Sequence record: JX128257
From: Escherichia phage ECML-4
Direction: 5' to 3' (one strand)
Length of the DNA: 64,000 nt
Shown: positions 12,573 to 59,032 of the stretch, one piece after another
Layout of the letters: each line of letters opens with the position of its first letter
Numbering within the stretch: position 1 is the stretch's first letter
Position numbers and translations under genes: made by a program
Notes under the pieces: model-generated
What the model saw: only the letters and a program-made list of their open reading frames with translations
Told to the model about the DNA's origin: nothing
Databases searched by the model: none

Positions 12573-14468
12573 ATGGCAACTCAAAGCTTCAGCGTTGCGC
12601 CGTCCGTACAGTGGACTGAGCGTGATGCCACGCTTCAGACTTCTCCGTCCGTGGTTGTTCAGGGCGCGACAGTCGGCAAATTTCAATGGGGTGAAGTCGA
12701 ACTCCCAGTGCTGGTGACTGGTGGTGAGACGGGTTTGGTGAAGAAATTCTTCAAACCTAATGACAGCACTGCGACAGATTTCCTTGTGATTGCAGACTTT
12801 TTGTCTTACAGCTCTATGGCATGGGTCACTCGTGTTGTTGGTCCTCTGGCCAAGAACTCTGTCACCAAAGGCCAGACAGCCATCACGATCAAAAACAAGC
12901 TGGATTTTGAAACAGCAAGTCCGTCAGCGTCTATCACTTGGGCTGGTCGTTATCCAGGATCTCTGGGGAATGACATCGCCATCAATGTTTGTGACTCCGC
13001 TGGATTCCCGACATGGGAATTCCGTAACAACTTTGCGTACGCACCTCAGTCTGGTGAATTCCATGTTGTGGTTGTAGACAAAGTTGGGCGCATTACTGAC
13101 TCTGCAGGCGCAGTCGGTCAGGTTGACCGTATATCTGTTTCTGGCACGGCAACTGCAGCTGGCACCATCAGTGTGGCAGGTGAAGATATCGCATATCTGG
13201 ATACTGATACTCCGGCCACTTTGGCGACCAAAATTGGCGCGGCGCTGACGGCGCTAACAGATGTTTATTCTTCTGTCGTTGTTAAGTCTAACACTGTCAT
13301 CGTGACCCATAAAGCTATTGGTCCCCAGACAGTTACTGCTATTGTTCCAGATGATAAGGGGCTGACTGCAACCGCCGTGATTACCACTGTTGGTGCATCT
13401 GGTTCTATTATCGAAAAATACGAACTCATGCAGAACACACAGGGTTCCAAAAAGTCCGATGGCGCGAATGCGTACTTCAAAGATGTCATCAATGATACAT
13501 CAAATTGGGTGTACACCTTCGCTACCGCTCTGGCCGCAGATGTTGTTGAATTAGAAGGCGGCGTAGACGACTACAATATCAACCGTGTCGCGGCTATCCA
13601 AGTTCTGAACAATGCCGAAGCATATGATGCGAAGCCAGTATTTGCATACTGTGAAGAGTTGATTGAACAACAGGCATTAATCGACTTGTCTACCGAGCGA
13701 AAAGACACCGTTTCCTTCGTGTCGCCTTTGCGTGATACCGTGGTCGGCAACCGTGGCCGTGAGATGGACGATGTGGTCGCTTGGCGTGAAAGTCTGGTGC
13801 GCGACTCCTCCTATTTCTTCATGGACGACAACTGGGCATACGTGTACGATAAATACAACGATAAGATGCGCTGGATCCCTGCTTGCGGCGGTACAGCGGG
13901 TGTTTGGGCACGTAGTATTGAAATCGCGGGTATCTACAAATCTCCTGCGTTCCACAACCGTGGCAAATACAACAACTACAATCGAATGGCGTGGTCTGCG
14001 TCTTCCGATGAACGTGCCGTGTTGTACCGCAACCAGATTAACAGCATCGTGACCTTCTCCAATGAAGGTATCGTGTTGTATGGTGACAAAACTGGTCTGA
14101 CACGTCCGTCTGCTTTCGATCGTATCAATGTTCGCGGTCTGTTTATTATGGCAGAACAGAACATCGCTGCAATCGCCAAATATTACCTTGGTGAGAACAA
14201 TGATGCGTTCACTCGCAGTCTGTTCAGCAACGCTGTTCGTCCTTATATTCGCCAGCTGGCAAATATGGGCGCGATCTACGATGGTAAAGTCAAGTGTGAC
14301 GAAGATAACAACACTGCTGACGTTATTGCGGCAAACCAGATGGTCGCTGGTATCTGGCTGAAACCGGAATACAGCATTAATTGGATCTACTTGGATTTTG
14401 CTGCCGTTCGACCGGACATGGAGTTCAGCGAGATCGAGTCCGGCGGCGGTATCGTCGCGGCGTCCTAA
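12573..14468 (+). CDS. 18: Tail sheath protein gp18
   Basis: N-terminal GATVGKFQWG matches T4 gp18 (AALAGKFQWG); C-terminal block (GDKTGLTRPSAFDRINVRGLF) matches T4 (GDKTATSVPSPFDRINVRRLF); ATG with AGAAGGAA site. Confidence 0.85.
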   Translation: MATQSFSVAPSVQWTERDATLQTSPSVVVQGATVGKFQWGEVELPVLVTGGETGLVKKFFKPNDSTATDFLVIADFLSYSSMAWVTRVVGPLAKNSVTKGQTAITIKNKLDFETASPSASITWAGRYPGSLGNDIAINVCDSAGFPTWEFRNNFAYAPQSGEFHVVVVDKVGRITDSAGAVGQVDRISVSGTATAAGTISVAGEDIAYLDTDTPATLATKIGAALTALTDVYSSVVVKSNTVIVTHKAIGPQTVTAIVPDDKGLTATAVITTVGASGSIIEKYELMQNTQGSKKSDGANAYFKDVINDTSNWVYTFATALAADVVELEGGVDDYNINRVAAIQVLNNAEAYDAKPVFAYCEELIEQQALIDLSTERKDTVSFVSPLRDTVVGNRGREMDDVVAWRESLVRDSSYFFMDDNWAYVYDKYNDKMRWIPACGGTAGVWARSIEIAGIYKSPAFHNRGKYNNYNRMAWSASSDERAVLYRNQINSIVTFSNEGIVLYGDKTGLTRPSAFDRINVRGLFIMAEQNIAAIAKYYLGENNDAFTRSLFSNAVRPYIRQLANMGAIYDGKVKCDEDNNTADVIAANQMVAGIWLKPEYSINWIYLDFAAVRPDMEFSEIESGGGIVAAS

Positions 14469-14503: not shown

Positions 14504-15226
14504 ATGATCTTTATAATAGAGAACATCGAAATGATCGGAAGTGTCTACAAAATCACAAATCTCACCAACCAGAAAGCCTATATCGGGATCACCACACGCG
14601 ACCCAATAGACAGGTGGTGGGAGCATTGCAACAACGCTCAGAACGGCTCTGATTACTTCATTCACCAGGCCATCCGTAAATACGGCGAAGAATCATTCTC
14701 GGTTCAGGTAATCGCGCAGACCAATTCTATAGAAGACCTCAAAGAATTAGAGATCATCTTGATAAAACAGCACGGCACTCATATGTCTACACAGAAAGGT
14801 TATAACAAGACTTGGGGTGGTGACGGCGCAACTTCTTCAGGGAAAGCGGGGGCAATAGACGTTAATACTGGTGAACGTTTAGGACTAATAGATTGTTCAG
14901 ATCCTCGTTGGGATATGGGGGAGATTATTAGTTGCAGACATGGAGTCAAACATAAAGATAATACCAGGTTGTCCAACTATGCCAAAACTCGGACTGGCGT
15001 TAAGAACCCCAATGCCAAGAAGTTCAAACTGATTTCACCATCCGGTGAAGAACATGAGATACATGGGAATTGCAAAGAATATGTGGAAAGCCTTGGGTTG
15101 AAATATTCAGCTCTTTATGATTATATTGAGAAAGACATCCCTGTTCCTCCGCCTTCTATATTTCATAAGAAGAATGCTTCACAAGAACGATTGAACACTG
15201 TTGGGTGGAGACTCGAAAGAATATGA
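14504..15226 (+). CDS. GIY-YIG homing endonuclease (free-standing, Seg-like)
   Basis: N-terminal VYKITNLTNQKAYIGIT (GIY-YIG) plus downstream R and E/N positions; GGAGGG site upstream; inserted between the conserved sheath and tube genes. Confidence 0.75.
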   Translation: MIFIIENIEMIGSVYKITNLTNQKAYIGITTRDPIDRWWEHCNNAQNGSDYFIHQAIRKYGEESFSVQVIAQTNSIEDLKELEIILIKQHGTHMSTQKGYNKTWGGDGATSSGKAGAIDVNTGERLGLIDCSDPRWDMGEIISCRHGVKHKDNTRLSNYAKTRTGVKNPNAKKFKLISPSGEEHEIHGNCKEYVESLGLKYSALYDYIEKDIPVPPPSIFHKKNASQERLNTVGWRLERI

Positions 15227-15681
15227 TATACGCATACAAAATTGAAATGGTTTGTAATGGAAAGGTCTACATCGGTGTGACCAATCACCCACAACGAAGA
15301 TATGATCAGCATTTTGCGAATGCCTTTCATCATGGAGTCCAAAGTGAATTGTATGACGCCATGCGTAAGTATGGAACATCTGGATTTACTTTCGTTGTAA
15401 TTGCTCAGACCGATGAAGTCCATAAATGGGAATTAGAGAAGCAACTCATCGCTCAATATAATTCTTATGAGATGGGTTACAACATGAATAAAGGCGGTAA
15501 TGATGGAAGTCATATGCTGGGTAAAACTGCAGCAAAATTGACATCCACAGGTGAACACATTGGTCTTGTTTCTCTCATAGATCCCCGTTGGGAATTGTGT
15601 GAAATCGAACCTGTTTCAAGTAATGTTCATCATGGTTTCGATCTTTCTTCTATGAAGATTAAAAGATTGACGACTAATTAG
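15223..15681 (+). CDS. Second GIY-YIG homing endonuclease paralogue, shorter (about 152 aa)
   Basis: IYAYKIEMVCNGKVYIGVT motif; shares a DPRW(D/E) block with the upstream copy; start overlaps the upstream stop (ATGA). Confidence 0.6.
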   Translation: MIYAYKIEMVCNGKVYIGVTNHPQRRYDQHFANAFHHGVQSELYDAMRKYGTSGFTFVVIAQTDEVHKWELEKQLIAQYNSYEMGYNMNKGGNDGSHMLGKTAAKLTSTGEHIGLVSLIDPRWELCEIEPVSSNVHHGFDLSSMKIKRLTTN

Positions 15682-22515: not shown

Positions 22516-22890
22516 ATGAGCAATTTACCACTGCTTCAAGTCGGTGACGTATTCATTCTCACGGCAGAAATGACCGTTGAAACTCAGGTGCCAAAGCATT
22601 TCTTGTATTCTAATTGCAAGGGTGATTGGCAAATGGACTCTGGTTATATCACCCCTGAGGGATTCTTCGGTTACATGCAAGGACATTACGTCGTTACCAA
22701 AACAGCCCTACAAGGCGGTAGCACTGGTCATGATCCATACCCTGACGGCCATCATGTTTGGGCGCAGCATACCGAAAATGAACGCATCAGAATCTGTTTC
22801 TATCAGACAGGTAGTTTCAGGAATATGCACCGGAATGTTCCAGTAGTCGGAAAGGCTAAGGCGCAAACATGGACTTGGGAGAAATTATGA
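22516..22890 (+). CDS. Hypothetical protein (124 aa)
   Basis: ORF 9 nt after the upstream stop; His/Gly-rich block GGSTGHDPYPDGHHVW of unknown meaning. Confidence 0.4.
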   Translation: MSNLPLLQVGDVFILTAEMTVETQVPKHFLYSNCKGDWQMDSGYITPEGFFGYMQGHYVVTKTALQGGSTGHDPYPDGHHVWAQHTENERIRICFYQTGSFRNMHRNVPVVGKAKAQTWTWEKL

Positions 22891-23123
22891 AAATCAAAAA
22901 GATAGGTGCAAGCCCATTGACGGGAACAATCTTCCAGGGCACTTTGAACACCAAGACCAGTATGTGGGTCGGTGAGAAGACTGATGTGACTAACGACTGT
23001 GTAGCGGCTACGGCTGAACACATGCGTCACATCAAGAAAGACTACTGCTTCCCTACTAAAGACGGCAAGTTCCTGGTGCTGAGCGCTGAGGTTCACGACA
23101 CCCTTCCTGATCGCTTCAAATAA
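22887..23123 (+). CDS. Hypothetical protein (78 aa)
   Basis: Start overlaps the upstream stop (ATGA). Confidence 0.35.
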   Translation: MKIKKIGASPLTGTIFQGTLNTKTSMWVGEKTDVTNDCVAATAEHMRHIKKDYCFPTKDGKFLVLSAEVHDTLPDRFK

Positions 23124-23148
23124 ATTTAAAATTTATTCAATAAACGGG

Positions 23149-23177
23149 GTTTACTTCTTCAATAAACCCCGTATACT
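23149..23177 (+). promoter_or_regulatory. Early promoter, sigma70-type (-35 GTTTAC, 17-bp spacer, -10 TATACT)
   Basis: GTTTAC at -35 is the T4 early-promoter hallmark; embedded in a 10-bp inverted repeat; the same module recurs at 58506 and 42352. Confidence 0.5.
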
Positions 23178-23226
23178 TCATTCCATAAGCAGCACAATAC
23201 TGACTCTGAAATGAAGGAAATATATC

Positions 23227-23493
23227 ATGGCACGTTCAATCCACGATTTTAAAGACTCCGATATCCTGGCTTTCATTATGGATGGTCGCATGGTAGTTGT
23301 AAATGACGGTAACGACCGCCACAACACTACTCTGGTGATGAACAACGAAGTTGTTTACAGCAACACCCGCGAAGGCATGATTAAGATGCTTCAGAATCCT
23401 CATCGCTTCGGCGACAAAATGCACAAAGATTACAAAAGCCGCTGCCCAATGCTGGCACAACGCCTGGCCTGGGCAATGCAAAACGCCGCCTGA
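23227..23493 (+). CDS. Hypothetical early protein (88 aa)
   Basis: Preceded by the early promoter and an AGGAAATATATCATG initiation context. Confidence 0.4.
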   Translation: MARSIHDFKDSDILAFIMDGRMVVVNDGNDRHNTTLVMNNEVVYSNTREGMIKMLQNPHRFGDKMHKDYKSRCPMLAQRLAWAMQNAA

Positions 23494-23540
23494 TCAACAA
23501 GCCCCTGCAGGGGCTTCCCCAAATTTGAAGGAACTATATC

Positions 23541-23870
23541 ATGACTTTTAAAGGCTTCGTGGCATTTGACGCCACCAAAACAAACGTACTCAGCAACCCA
23601 CAGCTGGAAACCATCACTGAAATGCGCCAGTGGGTGATGAAAATCACTGGCCACCAAACTCGCAAAGACCTGGAGGCCGAGTTCTATATCGAACCTGCCG
23701 AGGTTTACTTCAACCGTCCTGTTGACGAACCGTTCATTCGTCAAGATCTTGACGATAACGATATCACGCTGTCTGTGTTCTCTGAAGCCAAGGCTGATAT
23801 GATCGTAGACGGTCTGTGTGACGAGTCCTTCACATACGATGAATACTGTGATCAGTGCCAAGACCTGTGA
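23541..23870 (+). CDS. Hypothetical early protein (109 aa), acidic with a Cys-rich C-terminus
   Basis: AGGAACTATATCATG initiation context shared with several other early genes. Confidence 0.4.
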   Translation: MTFKGFVAFDATKTNVLSNPQLETITEMRQWVMKITGHQTRKDLEAEFYIEPAEVYFNRPVDEPFIRQDLDDNDITLSVFSEAKADMIVDGLCDESFTYDEYCDQCQDL

Positions 23871-23939
23871 TTTGTTCTAAACCTTTGAACGAGGTATGTT
23901 AAGCGCATACCCTATCCCTTACAAATAGAGGACTTTATC

Positions 23940-25649: not shown

Positions 25650-26348
25650 TCAATGACGAGCAGGGAGGACTCCCACTGGTTCGATGCCTTCGATCATCAG
25701 GGAGTCCACTCCAACATCGCTCAGGCGAATCCAAACCTTACCCCCTGGCCTTATCTCATAGATGTTCATCTCGTTTCCAACAGCAGACCCATTCACAAAA
25801 ACGCCTTGAGTAGCAATCCGAATAGGCGTTTTGGTGTTGTTGATTATCTGAAAAGATATCGTGATATCCCTTGTCAATTCCACATTTCTTGCTTTTGTAT
25901 ATCTCCTCAATTTTTCAAAGAAAGATGGATTGAATGTGGCTATGATGCTGTTGTTTTGTGAGTAGTAAATACTGGCAGACAGATAAGGGATTTTTCCCTC
26001 ATCACCTTTCCTCAATAGAGGGATCGTGGTTTTCCAGTACGGTCTCAACGCCTGGTTGTTATCATCAAAACAACCGACGGCTTGTATGGTTTGGAAATTC
26101 TGGAAGTCTGCCACAACTTGATCCAGTAACTTTTTATTACATTTGTCGACATCAGCAGAAATATTGACTGGTATAGTTCTGATTTCAGGATCCCAAAGAT
26201 CGGTGACAGAAATCACGGACGTGACAAAGATACGGCAGCTTGTAAGTACAAGCACCATTATCATCGTCATGATCCATTTTCTGAATCCGCGTATCAGGAA
26301 CACTAAAAAATTCTCCACAGCAAAGGTGCTAACATGACAGGTGTACAA
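25650..26348 (-). CDS. Putative lipoprotein / membrane-anchored protein on the minus strand
   Basis: One 232-aa ORF fills the gap exactly, whereas the + strand has only three short fragments; N-terminal hydrophobic stretch ending in a lipobox-like LTSC. Confidence 0.45.
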   Translation of the reverse strand: MYTCHVSTFAVENFLVFLIRGFRKWIMTMIMVLVLTSCRIFVTSVISVTDLWDPEIRTIPVNISADVDKCNKKLLDQVVADFQNFQTIQAVGCFDDNNQALRPYWKTTIPLLRKGDEGKIPYLSASIYYSQNNSIIATFNPSFFEKLRRYTKARNVELTRDITISFQIINNTKTPIRIATQGVFVNGSAVGNEMNIYEIRPGGKVWIRLSDVGVDSLMIEGIEPVGVLPARH

Positions 26349-29984: not shown

Positions 29985-30320
29985 ATATCACTCTCTTGTT
30001 AGTAAACATAACTACATAATAATCTCATGCTGTGTTTAGACCAAATAAATTATTTTGCTAGTTGAATAAAAATCGCTTTCTTGTTGAACAATCCGTGCGT
30101 AATATACGAGTTGTGAGCTTTGCGAGCAACGAGTATTATCACGAGCGAAGCGAGTAGACTGATAAAGAAAGGTTTTATTAAAACAGAATATTATAAATGC
30201 CGTCAGGCATTTATTTATCGCGCGTAGGGCATTTTAACACTTGTTCTATAACTGCAAACACGCGATACTAATTTGCGTCAAACATGACTTGAACCCCACT
30301 ATATTTTGAGGATATAAACA
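29985..30320. promoter_or_regulatory. AT-rich 335-bp divergent intergenic control region
   Basis: Longest non-coding stretch in the window; perfect hairpin AAATGCC-gtca-GGCATTT, short GCGAG direct repeats, TATAAAT-like element; lies between a minus-strand gene and gp45. Confidence 0.4.
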
Positions 30321-32515: not shown

Positions 32516-32980
32516 ATGGCGCGTAATACGCTGGACATCTTGAAACTTTCAGCTGTTAACGATGAGGCCAGCATCGTTGATTGTATGGTTGAAGTTCAAT
32601 TGAACCAAGATAAACCAGGAATTTTCCTGGGTATCAAGGAAACGCTGAGCCGCATCGGGGTGAACACTCGTCAAGAGCCGAATACCCTGTACCAAACATG
32701 TCATATTCTGCATAAATTTGGCAGATATCACATCGTGCACTTCAAGCATCTTTTCATGCTGGATGGGCATTACAACGGCTTTACGCGTGAAGATGTCCTG
32801 CGTATGAATCGGATTATTCGGCTTTTGGAGCAGTGGAATATGGTTAAAATACTGCATCCGGAACAGATTACCGAAGTTGCTGATATGTCTCGAATCAAAG
32901 TTGTAAAACATGACCAAGTTTCTGATTGGAAACTGGTTCCAAAATATACCATCCGCCCGAGTCGGGCGAAAAGCGAATAA
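32516..32980 (+). CDS. regA: Translational repressor RegA
   Basis: IKETLSRIGV...LYQTCHILHKFGRYHIVHFKHLFMLDG...WKLVPKYTI aligns with T4 RegA; similarity starts at Met-24 (nt 32585), so the true start may be 32585. Confidence 0.75.
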   Translation: MARNTLDILKLSAVNDEASIVDCMVEVQLNQDKPGIFLGIKETLSRIGVNTRQEPNTLYQTCHILHKFGRYHIVHFKHLFMLDGHYNGFTREDVLRMNRIIRLLEQWNMVKILHPEQITEVADMSRIKVVKHDQVSDWKLVPKYTIRPSRAKSE

Positions 32981-33860: not shown

Positions 33861-33929
33861 TATAAACCGTTATTCATTAAACAACAGAGGCTATAATGGC
33901 CTCTGTTTTTGTATTCTAGAGAGGATACC

Positions 33930-35153: not shown

Positions 35154-35265
35154 AGAATCGCTTTACTTCATTCTTCAATAACCCCATTTCAACGTATATT
35201 GACCTCACTTTAACGACGCGCCCATTTAGGGCGCTCAATTTGAACTGAAACAGGAAGACTATACC

Positions 35266-39107: not shown

Positions 39108-39208
39108 TTCTTCAAAAGTCTTTCAAAATCAATAACGTCCGGCAAAATGCTGGGCGTTTCAATTAATAAGCCAAGGTATAATGGCCCAACTGAAAACGCG
39201 GGGGAATT

Positions 39209-42306: not shown

Positions 42307-42314
42307 ACCAAAAG

Positions 42315-42345
42315 AATCCCCAATATTTATTGGGGATTTTTACTT
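42315..42345 (+). terminator. Rho-independent terminator (AATCCCCA-atatttat-TGGGGATT then TTTTACTTTT)
   Basis: 8-bp perfect stem plus T-run after the ACP-like gene. Confidence 0.65.
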
Positions 42346-42351
42346 TTAGGG

Positions 42352-42381
42352 GTTTACTTCTTCTAAAGAATATCCTATTAT
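42352..42381 (+). promoter_or_regulatory. Early promoter, sigma70-type (-35 GTTTAC, -10 TATTAT)
   Basis: Same GGGGTTTACTTCTTC module as at 23149; follows a terminator. Confidence 0.45.
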
Positions 42382-42426
42382 TCAATAACTGGCTAACGTG
42401 GGGTTGGCTAGAAAAGGAGATACAAA

Positions 42427-42905: not shown

Positions 42906-42965
42906 TTCTATAAACTCCGGCGGGGTATGATTACCCCGCCTATTTGAAATTGCAGGAACTATATC

Positions 42966-43244
42966 ATGACAGATCAAAGAAGTATTGCTCGTTCGGAAAT
43001 CAAAGATATTATACAGAGCAAGACCAACGAAACTCATGCCCAATCCAGAATGTTATCTCGATTTGTTGAAATTAAGTTTGACATTGAAGAGAATAACAAT
43101 CAGAGAGCGCTGGAGGGGATGTTGGCGATTATCTTGCGCCATTTCACCGATTCAGCATATGACATGGATGATTTAACTCGTTTGTTGAACGCCCAGAATA
43201 TCGTTGGGACTTCTGTTCGTGAATTGCTGTTTAAGTCTGAATGA
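42966..43244 (+). CDS. Hypothetical small protein (92 aa)
   Basis: Hairpin then AGGAACTATATCATG initiation context. Confidence 0.4.
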   Translation: MTDQRSIARSEIKDIIQSKTNETHAQSRMLSRFVEIKFDIEENNNQRALEGMLAIILRHFTDSAYDMDDLTRLLNAQNIVGTSVRELLFKSE

Positions 43245-45830: not shown

Positions 45831-45887
45831 TTCAATAACATTAGGGCGGTTATTATTAAACCGCCTTTTATTTGAGAGACCTATATC

Positions 45888-46559
45888 ATGGACAAATCTT
45901 ATCCTATCATCCTTGGTGCAGACCAAGGGAACCTGCGATTCTCTGAACCTTCCTATATTGCTTACGCCCGTGTTGGAGGGGCCAAATACGTGTATTGCCA
46001 ACATGACCATGGGCGTGGTACAGGCATCCTTCATTACACGGTGAATGACACGACGATGGTCCCTCTGAAGCCAGAAGACGTTGTGTTAGCGAGGCGGGTT
46101 TACATCGACTTCAACGCAATGGACAATAATGAAATTGATGCGCGTTATCATGCCATGAAAAGTATGGAAGGTCATGGGATTATCTATCGCGTTGATCACT
46201 TCGATGATTTCACTCAATCGATCGATTGGTTCGTTTCTGACAAAGTGATGGGCGAGCGGATCGTCACGACTCCGTGGGCACATACAGAACAACTCAGGGT
46301 TTCCACTGTTGCTTATGGAGAAGTAGACGCGTTGTGTCATAAATTCCGCATTTCGGTGACTTGTAATGAAGACCTTGGTGAAGAGATCCAATGGACCGCT
46401 GAATCACCACATTTTCGCGGACTTGAGATGCGTTCCGAAAGTCGTTCCCGTGCCGTAGTTCAGTTGGTCCTGTGGGCGTTCTACCAGCGCACCCCGTTCT
46501 CTTACATGGGACAGAAAGGAATTGATGAACTACTTAAATCCCACTCAGTGGAGGTGTGA
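45888..46559 (+). CDS. Hypothetical protein (223 aa)
   Basis: Terminator-like hairpin at 45849-45866 then a CTATATCATG start context. Confidence 0.4.
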   Translation: MDKSYPIILGADQGNLRFSEPSYIAYARVGGAKYVYCQHDHGRGTGILHYTVNDTTMVPLKPEDVVLARRVYIDFNAMDNNEIDARYHAMKSMEGHGIIYRVDHFDDFTQSIDWFVSDKVMGERIVTTPWAHTEQLRVSTVAYGEVDALCHKFRISVTCNEDLGEEIQWTAESPHFRGLEMRSESRSRAVVQLVLWAFYQRTPFSYMGQKGIDELLKSHSVEV

Positions 46560-48460: not shown

Positions 48461-48543
48461 ACGCTTTATTCAATAATATTTGTTAGGTAAGCTGTAGTCC
48501 TCTTGTAGTGAAACATTGTAAACAACTAACTGGAGTAATCCGA

Positions 48544-48822
48544 ATGAACCGTACTGATTTTATCGCTCACATCGCCCAGACTCAGGGTATGACCAAAGGC
48601 GAAGCAGAGAAGATCGTGGCATCCTTTATCAACGGCGTAAAAACTGCAGTCGCAGCTGGCCAATCTGTCCAATTCGTCGGCTTCGGCGCGTTTGAAGTTA
48701 AACATCAGGAAGCGCGCACTGGCCGCAACCCGCTGAACGGGCAAGCGATTCAGATCGAAGCGAAAAATGTTGTTAAATTCAAAGTCGGCGAAGGTCTGAA
48801 AGCTGCTGCCAACGGCCAGTAA
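48544..48822 (+). CDS. HU/IHF-family DNA-binding protein
   Basis: MNRTDFIAHIA...VQFVGFGAFEVKHQEARTGRNPLNGQAIQIEAKNVVKFKVG aligns with E. coli HU ([30 protein letters not shown]). Confidence 0.85.
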   Translation: MNRTDFIAHIAQTQGMTKGEAEKIVASFINGVKTAVAAGQSVQFVGFGAFEVKHQEARTGRNPLNGQAIQIEAKNVVKFKVGEGLKAAANGQ

Positions 48823-57125: not shown

Positions 57126-57221
57126 GGTGAAGGGCACTAAATATCAAGTGCCCTTTATCTTTTAACCCTGTCAGGAGGCTCAATCGAGCTGCAAGTCGAC
57201 AAACACATAAGGAACGCCATC

Positions 57222-57839
57222 ATGACGATGACAACGTTGAAGGCCATGGCCTTGTCCGTGACCTTTACCATTGCCAGCGGGAGTGTGCACGCTTCCCAAA
57301 GTACCACCCAATGTGATTACGAATTTTCTGATCAGCAACTTTCAACTATGGCCACTGCCTATCACATAGGCAAACAGCAAGACCTTGGTTTCACCCTAGC
57401 CGCGATATCATGGAGGGAAAGCCGCGCCGGAGAAGATGTGGTATCCATGCGGAATAACCTGAAATCGGCTAATATGGGGGCATTCCAAAATCGCGTCCAA
57501 ACCGTTGGGAAACGGGAGGGATGCAAAACACAGAAGTGTTACGCCAACGTGGCGATTAAATTGCTGGTCAATCAAGAGTACGCAGCCAATGCAGCCCTTG
57601 ATGAAATGAATTTCTGGCTTGGGTATCATAACCAAAACATCCGCAAATCGCTCTCCTCTTACAATGCCGGTTTCAGTCGTAACCAAAAATCCAATTCATA
57701 CGCTGCTGATGTCGTGAAGAAGGCTAAATATCTTCAACGATGTGTGTCTTTCAAAGGCATGGCAATAAACCCGAAGGTCGACCCAGGAGTGATCGCCATG
57801 AATAAGCGCACGATTGAGAAACTCAAGAGGACCCGATAA
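57222..57839 (+). CDS. Lytic transglycosylase (SLT domain) with N-terminal signal or signal-anchor-release-like segment
   Basis: Catalytic region WRESRAGEDVVSMRNNLKSANMGAFQ and SYNAGFS (SLT family E-S...GxxQ...YNxG); N-terminal weakly hydrophobic Ala/Ser/Thr-rich segment MTMTTLKAMALSVTFTIASGSVHA. Confidence 0.55.
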   Translation: MTMTTLKAMALSVTFTIASGSVHASQSTTQCDYEFSDQQLSTMATAYHIGKQQDLGFTLAAISWRESRAGEDVVSMRNNLKSANMGAFQNRVQTVGKREGCKTQKCYANVAIKLLVNQEYAANAALDEMNFWLGYHNQNIRKSLSSYNAGFSRNQKSNSYAADVVKKAKYLQRCVSFKGMAINPKVDPGVIAMNKRTIEKLKRTR

Positions 57840-58477: not shown

Positions 58478-58505
58478 AATAATTCAATAAAAGGGGCAAA
58501 CGCCC

Positions 58506-58534
58506 CTTTACTTCTTCAATAACTACCGTATAAT
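58506..58534 (+). promoter_or_regulatory. Early promoter, sigma70-type (-35 CTTTAC, 17-bp spacer, -10 TATAAT)
   Basis: Perfect TATAAT; sequence block homologous to the promoter at 23149; preceded by a terminator hairpin GGGGC-aaac-GCCCC. Confidence 0.55.
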
Positions 58535-58582
58535 TCTAAACATAAGCAGTACGACACCAACTTGAAAAGCAGGAACTACATC

Positions 58583-58951
58583 ATGACCAAAACTGAATTG
58601 AACAACATTCTAAACGTTGCTGGGTACAAGAATATTCGTCGTGGGAACAATAAAATCGCGCGTGACCGTAGCAACAAAATCATCAAGGGGTTTCCCCTGT
58701 GTAAAACTGGTCCGCTCGATATCAGCAACCCGTCCAAGCGCTTGTTTAAAGACTTATTACGTGAACTCGGCACTAAAGGCCTGGTGCTAGATAAAAAGGA
58801 TGACCTGGTTGACTTTGGCATCGCGGTTATGAAGATTGCCAAATTCAAAATAACTCTGTGCGTACAGACCATTCAGACATATGACTACTCTGAAGGCCGT
58901 GACCCGAATTACGAAACAAAATATGTCAACGTAAGGATTGAAGGGTTATAA
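58583..58951 (+). CDS. Hypothetical early protein (122 aa)
   Basis: CAGGAACTACATCATG initiation context downstream of the early promoter. Confidence 0.4.
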   Translation: MTKTELNNILNVAGYKNIRRGNNKIARDRSNKIIKGFPLCKTGPLDISNPSKRLFKDLLRELGTKGLVLDKKDDLVDFGIAVMKIAKFKITLCVQTIQTYDYSEGRDPNYETKYVNVRIEGL

Positions 58952-59032
58952 TACGAATATGCGGGGGCTTGATGCCCCTTTCTTTTCGCTAATTAAGGAA
59001 AACCGCACCGATTTATTATCAGGAGAATTACA

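Follow-up and report, generated by a model that had tools for sequence, protein, structure and literature searches.

A stretch of 64,000 nucleotides of Escherichia phage ECML-4 (sequence record JX128257; hereafter the window, which means the whole stretch at its full length) contains two copies of a compound intergenic element, referred to here as E1 (23124-23229) and E2 (58478-58585), which are probably terminator-promoter-initiation cassettes of a ViI-like phage through which small genes are swapped. They resemble the promoter-early stem-loops (PeSLs) of T4-like phages (Arbiol et al., 2010, PMC2839356; Comeau et al., 2014, PMC4122927). An earlier note on this DNA had pointed to homologous blocks of about 35 bp at 23143-23177 and 58506-58534, with a related copy near 42352 and a weaker one near 35161, and had described them as modular early promoters coupled to hairpins and to a shared start-codon context. 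The elements have a common anatomy and form a family of copies, they are better conserved than the coding DNA that flanks them, homology between relatives breaks at their ATG, and their promoter spacer contains the octamer TTCAATAA, which is a strand- and distance-specific signal in the intergenic DNA of these phages.

The repeats noticed earlier are real and their likeness is longer than 35 bp, running from TTCAATAAA upstream through a GC hairpin, the promoter core and the leader to the start region. The 16-mer TTTACTTCTTCAATAA is exact at 23150-23165 and 58507-58522, and with up to three mismatches it occurs at five sites against 0.75 expected, a number that none of 100 shuffles reaches. Both main copies contain (G/C)TTTAC-N17-TATA(A/C)T, followed by a homologous leader, CATAAGCAG(C/T)AC, of ~42 nt, which reaches the Shine-Dalgarno (SD) sequence and the ATG in a start region common to E1 and E2, AGGAA(C/A)TA(T/C)ATCATG. 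The parts of E1, E2 and a diverged third copy, E3, are as follows.

23124-23229, + strand: cassette E1, the complete intergenic module from the stop of gene 22869-23123 to the ATG of gene 23227-23493.
23132-23144, + strand: AT-rich palindrome TTTATTCAATAAA of E1, UP-element-like, including an upstream TTCAATAA at 23136-23143.
23144-23172, + strand: hairpin of E1 with a 10-bp stem and a 9-nt loop (-14 kcal/mol, z -5.5, by folding).
23149-23154, + strand: -35 of E1, GTTTAC, its TTTAC invariant in an 11-sequence alignment from two genera.
23158-23165, + strand: TTCAATAA box of E1, 6 nt upstream of the -10.
23172-23177, + strand: -10 of E1, TATACT, with a predicted transcription start at ~23185, a position derived from spacing only, within the conserved CATAAGCAG.
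23215-23229, + strand: translation initiation region of E1, AGGAAATATATCATG, where homology to relatives stops.
23529-23543, + strand: second copy of the initiation region, AGGAACTATATCATG, at gene 23541-23870, with a hairpin ahead of it at 23500-23515.
58478-58585, + strand: cassette E2, the complete intergenic module upstream of gene 58583-58951.
58490-58509, + strand: terminator-like hairpin of E2, AAAGGGGC-loop-GCCCCTTT (-13.6 kcal/mol, by folding).
58506-58534, + strand: promoter core of E2, with CTTTAC at 58506-58511, TTCAATAA at 58515-58522 and TATAAT at 58529-58534; predicted start ~58542.
58571-58585, + strand: initiation region of E2, AGGAACTACATCATG, where homology to relatives stops.
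42312-42388, + strand: diverged cassette E3, with a hairpin at 42312-42341, GTTTAC at 42352-42357, an 18-bp spacer and TATTAT at 42376-42381.

The hairpin of E1 holds the -35 in its 5' arm and the box in its loop and 3' arm, and the T-rich tract that follows the hairpin of E2 overlaps the -35. The 17-bp spacing claimed for all four copies holds at 23149/23172 and 58506/58529 and fails at 42352 and 35161. The copy at 42352 is related and has GTTTAC, but it is diverged, with a spacer of 18 bp, TATTAT as its -10 and TTCAATAA at 42381-42388, overlapping the end of that -10; at 35161, TTTAC lies 28 nt from TATATT and the promoter belongs to a different class, TTCAATAA-N13-TATATT. Hairpins likewise stand where expected in E1, E2 and E3, but that of the 35161 copy lies downstream, in the leader. 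The window thus has two canonical copies and a diverged one; a third canonical copy is found at 140804 in the related phage vB_EcoM_3HA11 (hereafter 3HA11), six copies are found in Serratia phage 3M (Miltonvirus), and most Kuttervirus genomes have three matching places per record in a blastn search against phage records. In the 3M copies with the box 6 nt from the -10, a geometry referred to below as class E, the counterpart of the palindrome, TTTATTGAATAAA, is located immediately upstream of the -35. In the leaders (23184-23214 and 58541-58570), ATAAGCAG...(A)CTTGAAA(n)G is kept between cassette copies and between genera, including class E of 3M, where all six occurrences of ACTTGAAAC are intergenic.

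Conservation was followed in relatives found by megablast, which places the window in the family Ackermannviridae, genus Kuttervirus (the ViI/CBA120 group). The region from 22 to 26 kb is 99.7% identical to 3HA11, an Escherichia phage, and that from 35 to 60 kb ~99% identical to Salmonella phage Vi01; no one record matches the entire window, which is a mosaic relative of 3HA11 with indels, collinear with it and split into 12 blocks by insertions and replacements. Further loci were collected from IMG/VR by means of the proteins encoded immediately upstream of the cassettes (16 for E1, 15 for E2). Across these relatives the ~105-nt non-coding cassettes share 86-98% identity with the window; in the final 300 nt of the gene ahead of them, identity drops to 69-75%. 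For E1 the identity is 88-98% in the 16 Ackermannviridae loci, with a minimum of 69% in the 300 nt of upstream coding sequence, and E2 is conserved in its 15 loci. In 30 of 31 comparisons the module is more similar than the 300 nt of coding sequence that precede it (97% against 69% in locus L021, for example). The conservation extends across several genera, and the copies are far more numerous than chance would give. What stays invariant is TTTAC, TTCTTCAATA, TATAnT, CATAAGCAG...CTTGAAA and AGGAAC; the variable parts are the loop of the hairpin, the 6 nt that separate box from -10 and the 4 nt past the -10, and at E2 an invariant stem carries a freely varying loop.

The similarity ends abruptly at the start codon. 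Most blastn matches of E1 among all phage records end at positions 170-173 of the query, where the ATG (23227-23229) lies, and in locus-by-locus BLAST comparisons homology stops at 23229-23232 (E1) or 58586-58597 (E2) and restarts in the next intergenic region, at 23868-23871 and 58963-58986, respectively; in one locus (L016) the restart is at 23540, the second AGGAACTATATCATG. The proteins encoded behind the cassettes have unrelated N-termini, at least five of them at E2 and at least four at E1. When the window is compared with 3HA11, four of the 19 block ends (39208, 42407, 45890 and 58586) coincide with start codons behind such promoters, against ~0.2 expected by our own estimate from the fraction of the window that they occupy; the first three of these ends belong to the promoter at 39158-39182, to E3 and to the cassette at 45831-45890. 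The reading of the repeats as modular promoter units with hairpins therefore gains from both their conservation and their location exactly at gene-replacement junctions, and it matches a published concept.

That concept is the PeSL, which joins an AT-rich tract, a sigma-70-like promoter with a stem-loop immediately ahead of it, an SD and a start codon, with the promoter consensus TTTACW-N17-TAYWAT in T4/PST; PeSLs are repeated, are located in plastic regions at the junctions of indels and replacements, and have a Mot-box version, the PmSL (Comeau et al., 2014, PMC4122927). E1 and E2 likewise combine a stem-loop, a -35/N17/-10 promoter, an SD and a start codon in one intergenic element, with several near-identical copies per genome, and the homology of relatives is lost within the element or at its end, at replacement junctions adjoined by small variable open reading frames (ORFs). 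As far as sequence can tell, the flagged modules have every feature by which PeSLs are recognised. They differ in that their family is Ackermannviridae and not Tevenvirinae or Schizo-T-evens and in that a conserved TTCAATAA box occupies the spacer. The stem-loop of E1 wraps around the -35 instead of standing upstream of it, and at some sites of the second promoter class described below the -10 lies within a terminator loop, whereas in the PeSL papers the promoter follows the stem-loop.

The promoters themselves are similar to T4 early promoters in their GTTTAC-type -35, ~17-bp spacer, TATAAT-type -10, AT-rich, UP-like upstream region and extra conserved positions. They lack the TGn extended -10, having CCG or GCG, and thus a conserved CG, ahead of the -10, and their spacer consensus is another; moreover, neither Alt nor ModA is reported in the ViI-like family (PMC3184105). 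According to the CBA120 genome paper, the ViI-like family is without MotA, AsiA, Alt and ModA, its early promoters could not be found with informatics and its late motif was not yet identified (Kutter et al., 2011). Promoters have nevertheless been listed in relatives: in the LIMEstone paper, similarity to T4 served to predict 5 early, 5 middle and 33 late promoters, and Table S2 for Shigella phage AG3 gives nine putative sigma-70 promoters (Anany et al., 2011). Among the latter, Porf138 ('TTttacttcttcaataactcacgTATAAT'), listed as a putative early sigma-70 promoter, is the ortholog of E2, and Porf067 and Porf237 are orthologs of sites of the second class; the AG3 list differs from the present analysis in that it consists of individual weak matches to TTGACA-N15-18-TATAAT, and it mentions neither the box that these promoters share nor the structure of the cassettes nor their behaviour at junctions.

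In the reading that we propose, the cassette comprises, in this order, an AT-rich tract, a GC-rich stem-loop, a sigma-70-type promoter, a leader of ~42 nt, a strong ribosome site and the ATG. The stem-loop would end or stabilise the upstream transcript. The predicted promoter consists of the T4-early-like -35 (G/C)TTTAC, the 17-bp spacer with the family-specific TTCAATAA and the -10 TATA(A/C)T; the leader opens with ATAAGCAG and includes CTTGAAA, and the ribosome site is AGGAAC-TAYATC ahead of the ATG. The host RNA polymerase most likely initiates at ~23185 and ~58542, and the cassette promoters would express a small accessory gene, probably early in infection. Since the cassette is nearly identical at several genome sites and across related phages, it would serve as a homology patch too, and recombination there would swap the downstream ORF precisely at the start codon, as described for PeSLs. 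We infer the 'early' timing, and likewise the promoter activity, the terminator activity and the recombination mechanism of the cassettes.

The octamer in the spacer turns out to have a life of its own. The earlier note had treated it as spacer sequence; an unbiased k-mer screen of intergenic against coding DNA shows that it recurs throughout the genome in a strand-specific manner and keeps a fixed distance of its own from the -10. No intergenic 8-mer is more enriched than TTCAATAA, either in 3HA11 (23 copies, 1.25 expected) or in Serratia 3M (20 copies, 1.03 expected). Relative to dinucleotide shuffles of unidirectional intergenic regions, it occurs in the window nine times in the sense orientation against 0.20 expected, and once antisense, and in 3HA11 18 times against 0.52. 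Hexamers resembling a -10 (at least five of six matches) cluster downstream of it in two places, at offset 6, as in class E, and at offsets 10-14, sharply peaked at 12, an arrangement here called class M; ten sites in 3M have an offset of exactly 12, and box copies inside genes, used as a control, show a flat distribution. Class M sites have the geometry TTCAATAA-N12±1-TATAAT, with no TTTAC and no consistent or usable -35 hexamer at 16-17 bp. Those of the window are the following.

35162-35200, + strand: the 'weaker copy', class M, with a TTTACTTC remnant, the box at 35174-35181, N13 and TATATT at 35195-35200.
45831-45890, + strand: class M cassette, with the box at 45831-45838, N12, TATTAT at 45851-45856 in the loop of hairpin 45843-45867, and the ATG at 45888.
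42906-42968, + strand: class M cassette, with TTCTATAA at 42906-42913, N12, TATGAT at 42926-42931 at the apex of hairpin 42919-42940, and AGGAACTATATCATG at 42954-42968.
33873-33907, + strand: class M cassette, with TTCATTAA at 33873-33880, N11 and TATAAT at 33892-33897 at the apex of terminator hairpin 33883-33907.
48469-48493, + strand: class M promoter of the HU-like gene 48544-48822, with TTCAATAA, N11 and TAAGCT.
39158-39182, + strand: class M promoter of gene 39209, with TTCAATTA, N11 and TATAAT.
30244-30269, + strand: weak class M candidate for the sliding clamp gene (gp45, 30321), with TTCTATAA, N12 and GATACT; its box is not kept in 3M.

At orthologous promoters of Kuttervirus and Miltonvirus, the spacer has diverged, as has any hairpin stem, but box and -10 persist. 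This pattern is seen at a 673-aa gene, the HU-like gene and a 407-aa gene, and not upstream of gp45. In 3M, the ortholog of 35162-35200 keeps box and -10 with a diverged spacer, that of 33873-33907 keeps the box, the loop TATAAT and the hairpin with different stem bases, and at the HU-like gene GCTTTATTCAATA and TAA(G/C)CTGTA are conserved. About a third of class M sites have the -10 at the loop or apex of a strong terminator hairpin (in the window those at 33883-33907, 45843-45867 and 42919-42940), and a transcript begun in the loop, being without the 5' arm, would therefore escape termination. The shuffle control for this arrangement does not discriminate, because shuffling of the arms preserves their G-rich or C-rich composition, and only the count of strong hairpins is reported. 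As a sequence signal the octamer is well supported, and we regard it as a putative regulatory box. To our knowledge, none of the IHF, H-NS and ArgR sites fits the invariant 8-mer, and the motif string led to no relevant paper in the searchable literature.

Several points weigh against the interpretation of E1 and E2 as PeSL-type cassettes. The hairpin of E1 has no clear U-tract, which makes its role as a terminator doubtful, and there are only ~3 canonical copies per genome, a difference from T4-like phages, which have many more PeSLs. Repeated recombination or gene conversion, and not per-base selection, could account for the high conservation. Hypermodified thymidines in ViI-like DNA might alter promoter recognition, and no transcript or 5'-end data for Ackermannviridae phages were found in the searchable literature. 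Finally, since the box also occurs at a second distance, what it does in class E may depend on a factor beyond sigma-70.

This last point leads to the strongest alternative, which we regard as possible, if on the unlikely side, namely that TTCAATAA itself does the work, recognised by a transcription factor that the phage encodes or modifies, and that the flagged modules are one arm of a putative regulon in which the box would activate at 12±1 bp from the -10 and modulate or shut off at 6 bp. The rank of the octamer among intergenic 8-mers in both genomes, its sense-strand excess in the window, the clustering of the -10 offsets with a flat coding control, its preservation at orthologous promoters of two genera and the lack of a usable -35 in class M all point to such a factor. 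So does the geometry, which is the same as that of the T4 MotA box, (a/t)(a/t)(a/t)TGCTTtA at 12±1 bp from the -10 (Hinton, 2010, PMC2988021). Class M further shares with PmSLs and T4 middle promoters the absence of a -35 and, often, a stem-loop. The box is, however, unrelated to TGCTT (a T4 middle promoter has its TGCTT MotA box centred at -30), and no MotA or AsiA homolog is reported for the ViI-like family (Kutter et al., 2011). A tblastn search of 3HA11, 3M and the window with a single AsiA sequence as its sole query gave noise only. The -10 of class M is often in a terminator loop, and a box at 12±1 bp without a -35 is found only in class M (for example at 45831, 33873 and 48469), whereas E1 and E2 have the box 6 bp from the -10 plus a good -35, and thus need no activator. 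Some class M sites, moreover, read TTTTCA-N16-TATAAT and are possibly usable by sigma-70 alone.

The box is also not enriched in 37 kb of Vibrio phage D524 (OZ196643.1, 1-36924; locus L164), a syntenic, distant relative (gp45 36% identical). Intergenic promoters of D524 resemble a terminator followed by TGTATAATGG, an extended -10.

Going one step further, it is conceivable, though we doubt it, that in enterobacterial Ackermannviridae, for which no MotA or AsiA is reported, prereplicative transcription runs through a box-dependent system in which one factor is the early-to-middle switch. TTCAATAA may then be read by a phage factor or a remodelled sigma-70, with ~15-20 promoters per genome activated at 12 bp, many of them with the -10 in the loop of the preceding terminator, and a box 6 bp from the -10 may silence the early cassettes.

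If the cassettes were terminators or recombination linkers only, with no promoter activity, the -35 and -10 matches would be incidental. The hairpins and the junctions at the modules would fit, and a generic scan for sigma-70 promoters and terminators between 20 and 40 kb found 31 sites against 33.8 in shuffles, a lack of excess that is uninformative. We consider this very improbable: the invariant positions are exactly the -35, the box, the -10 and the start region, while loops and spacers vary, and the class E copies of Serratia 3M and the third copy of 3HA11 keep the promoter without the hairpin.

The earlier note had also suggested that the start-codon context might be an operator for the RegA protein, and the phage does encode a RegA homolog, which is given here with its matches.

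32516-32980, + strand: RegA homolog (PF01818, E 6.2e-35; phrog_242).

The context itself stands in part: AGGAANTATATCATG is exact at three genes (23215-23229, 23529-23543 and 42954-42968), but it is approximate at the three others, with one mismatch at 58571-58585 (ATG 58583), three at 45876-45890 (ATG 45888) and a fit at the 35266 start only with a 1-nt insertion. With up to three mismatches it is found at 19 sites against 6.4 expected. An RNA operator at AGGAAC-TATATC-ATG for a putative RegA repressor would agree with the presence of the homolog, with an initiation region of ~25 nt (...CTTGAAAnGnAGGAACTAnAnCATG) that is common to several genes and kept in two genera, and with the overlap of the motif with the SD-ATG region, where T4 RegA acts. 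The ATC before ATG is, however, a general preference. Across the 82 starts of the window, A occupies -3 in 71%, T occupies -2 in 52% and C occupies -1 in 39%; ATC stands before the ATG in 17 of the 82 genes, including portal, scaffold and major capsid, and in 30 of 206 in 3HA11, and it is as frequent behind late-type CTAAATA promoters (4/10) as behind early and middle box-type promoters (4/11), so the motif is not restricted to prereplicative genes. The extended motif is also not found at the starts of gp45, gp44, gp62 and regA (30321, 31070, 32064 and 32516), the orthologs of T4 RegA targets. It is unlike the T4 RegA site from SELEX (systematic evolution of ligands by exponential enrichment), which is A/U-rich and does not resemble CUAUAUC. 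The long identical versions are the 3' ends of cassettes, and their identity is explained without an operator by their position at recombination junctions. A RegA operator at these start regions is therefore unlikely, and we would give it hardly any weight.

A second motif, (A)CTAAATA, comes next after TTCAATAA in the intergenic k-mer ranking and is likely to be a gp55-type late promoter, for which the T4 late promoter TATAAATA offers the comparison. As (A)CTAAATA(c/t) it occurs on the + strand at 1758, 8274, 12524, 18003, 19221, 57137, 61452 and 62077, and CTAAATA is found further at 14465 and 28068, inside the ends of coding sequences. Its distance to the start codon that follows, in most cases that of a structural gene, is 30-50 nt (85 nt at 57137), and it is strand-specific in the window (seven sense and no antisense occurrences, 0.48 expected). 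Ten of the 16 intergenic CTAAATA sites of 3HA11 are in structural-gene clusters, and the motif is also a top intergenic one in Serratia 3M and Vibrio phage D524. TTCAATAA itself was rejected as a late promoter, as the motif ahead of structural genes is CTAAATA; of the 27 intergenic boxes of 3HA11, none lies in structural-gene clusters, which hold 12% of its intergenic DNA (P about 0.03).

The statements of the CBA120 paper had left early and middle gene control of ViI-like phages unexplained. We propose a testable promoter catalogue of three classes, namely TTTAC-N17-TATAAT cassettes, TTCAATAA-N12-TATAAT promoters and CTAAATA late-type sites. With the strongest cassettes as linkers for accessory-gene swaps across genera, PeSL shuffling would extend beyond T4-like phages, which is relevant for the annotation and engineering of Kuttervirus phages for biocontrol of Salmonella and E. 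coli O157. The TTCAATAA box with its second, middle-promoter-like geometry is a more interesting outcome than the cassettes.

The 82 genes of the window, almost all on the + strand, were called from codon usage with a caller that reproduces the 3HA11 annotation. An Rfam scan of the window found no family and ARAGORN no tRNA; a scan of IMG/VR with the exact 16-mer listed mainly unrelated contigs and is uninformative on taxonomic spread. Some features away from the cassettes may be of interest in their own right. The genes for tail sheath and tail tube are separated by two tandem GIY-YIG homing-endonuclease-like ORFs (14504-15226 and 15223-15681), of which the first is in a block without a match to 3HA11. 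On the - strand, 25650-26258 is a 202-aa ORF with a strong match to DUF7424 (E 2e-60), where the 3HA11 record has no coding sequence. The 3HA11 ortholog of 57222-57839 is annotated as 'RegB site-specific RNA endonuclease', an annotation that looks unsupported: the protein has no RegB Pfam match, a sub-threshold SLT match only, and falls in a PHROG family of unknown function. Upstream of the sliding clamp gene, 29985-30320 is a 336-nt AT-rich non-coding region between divergent genes that could be a replication origin or an RNA gene; Serratia 3M and Vibrio D524 have an equivalent region that is likewise long, of ~600 nt and 343 nt, respectively.

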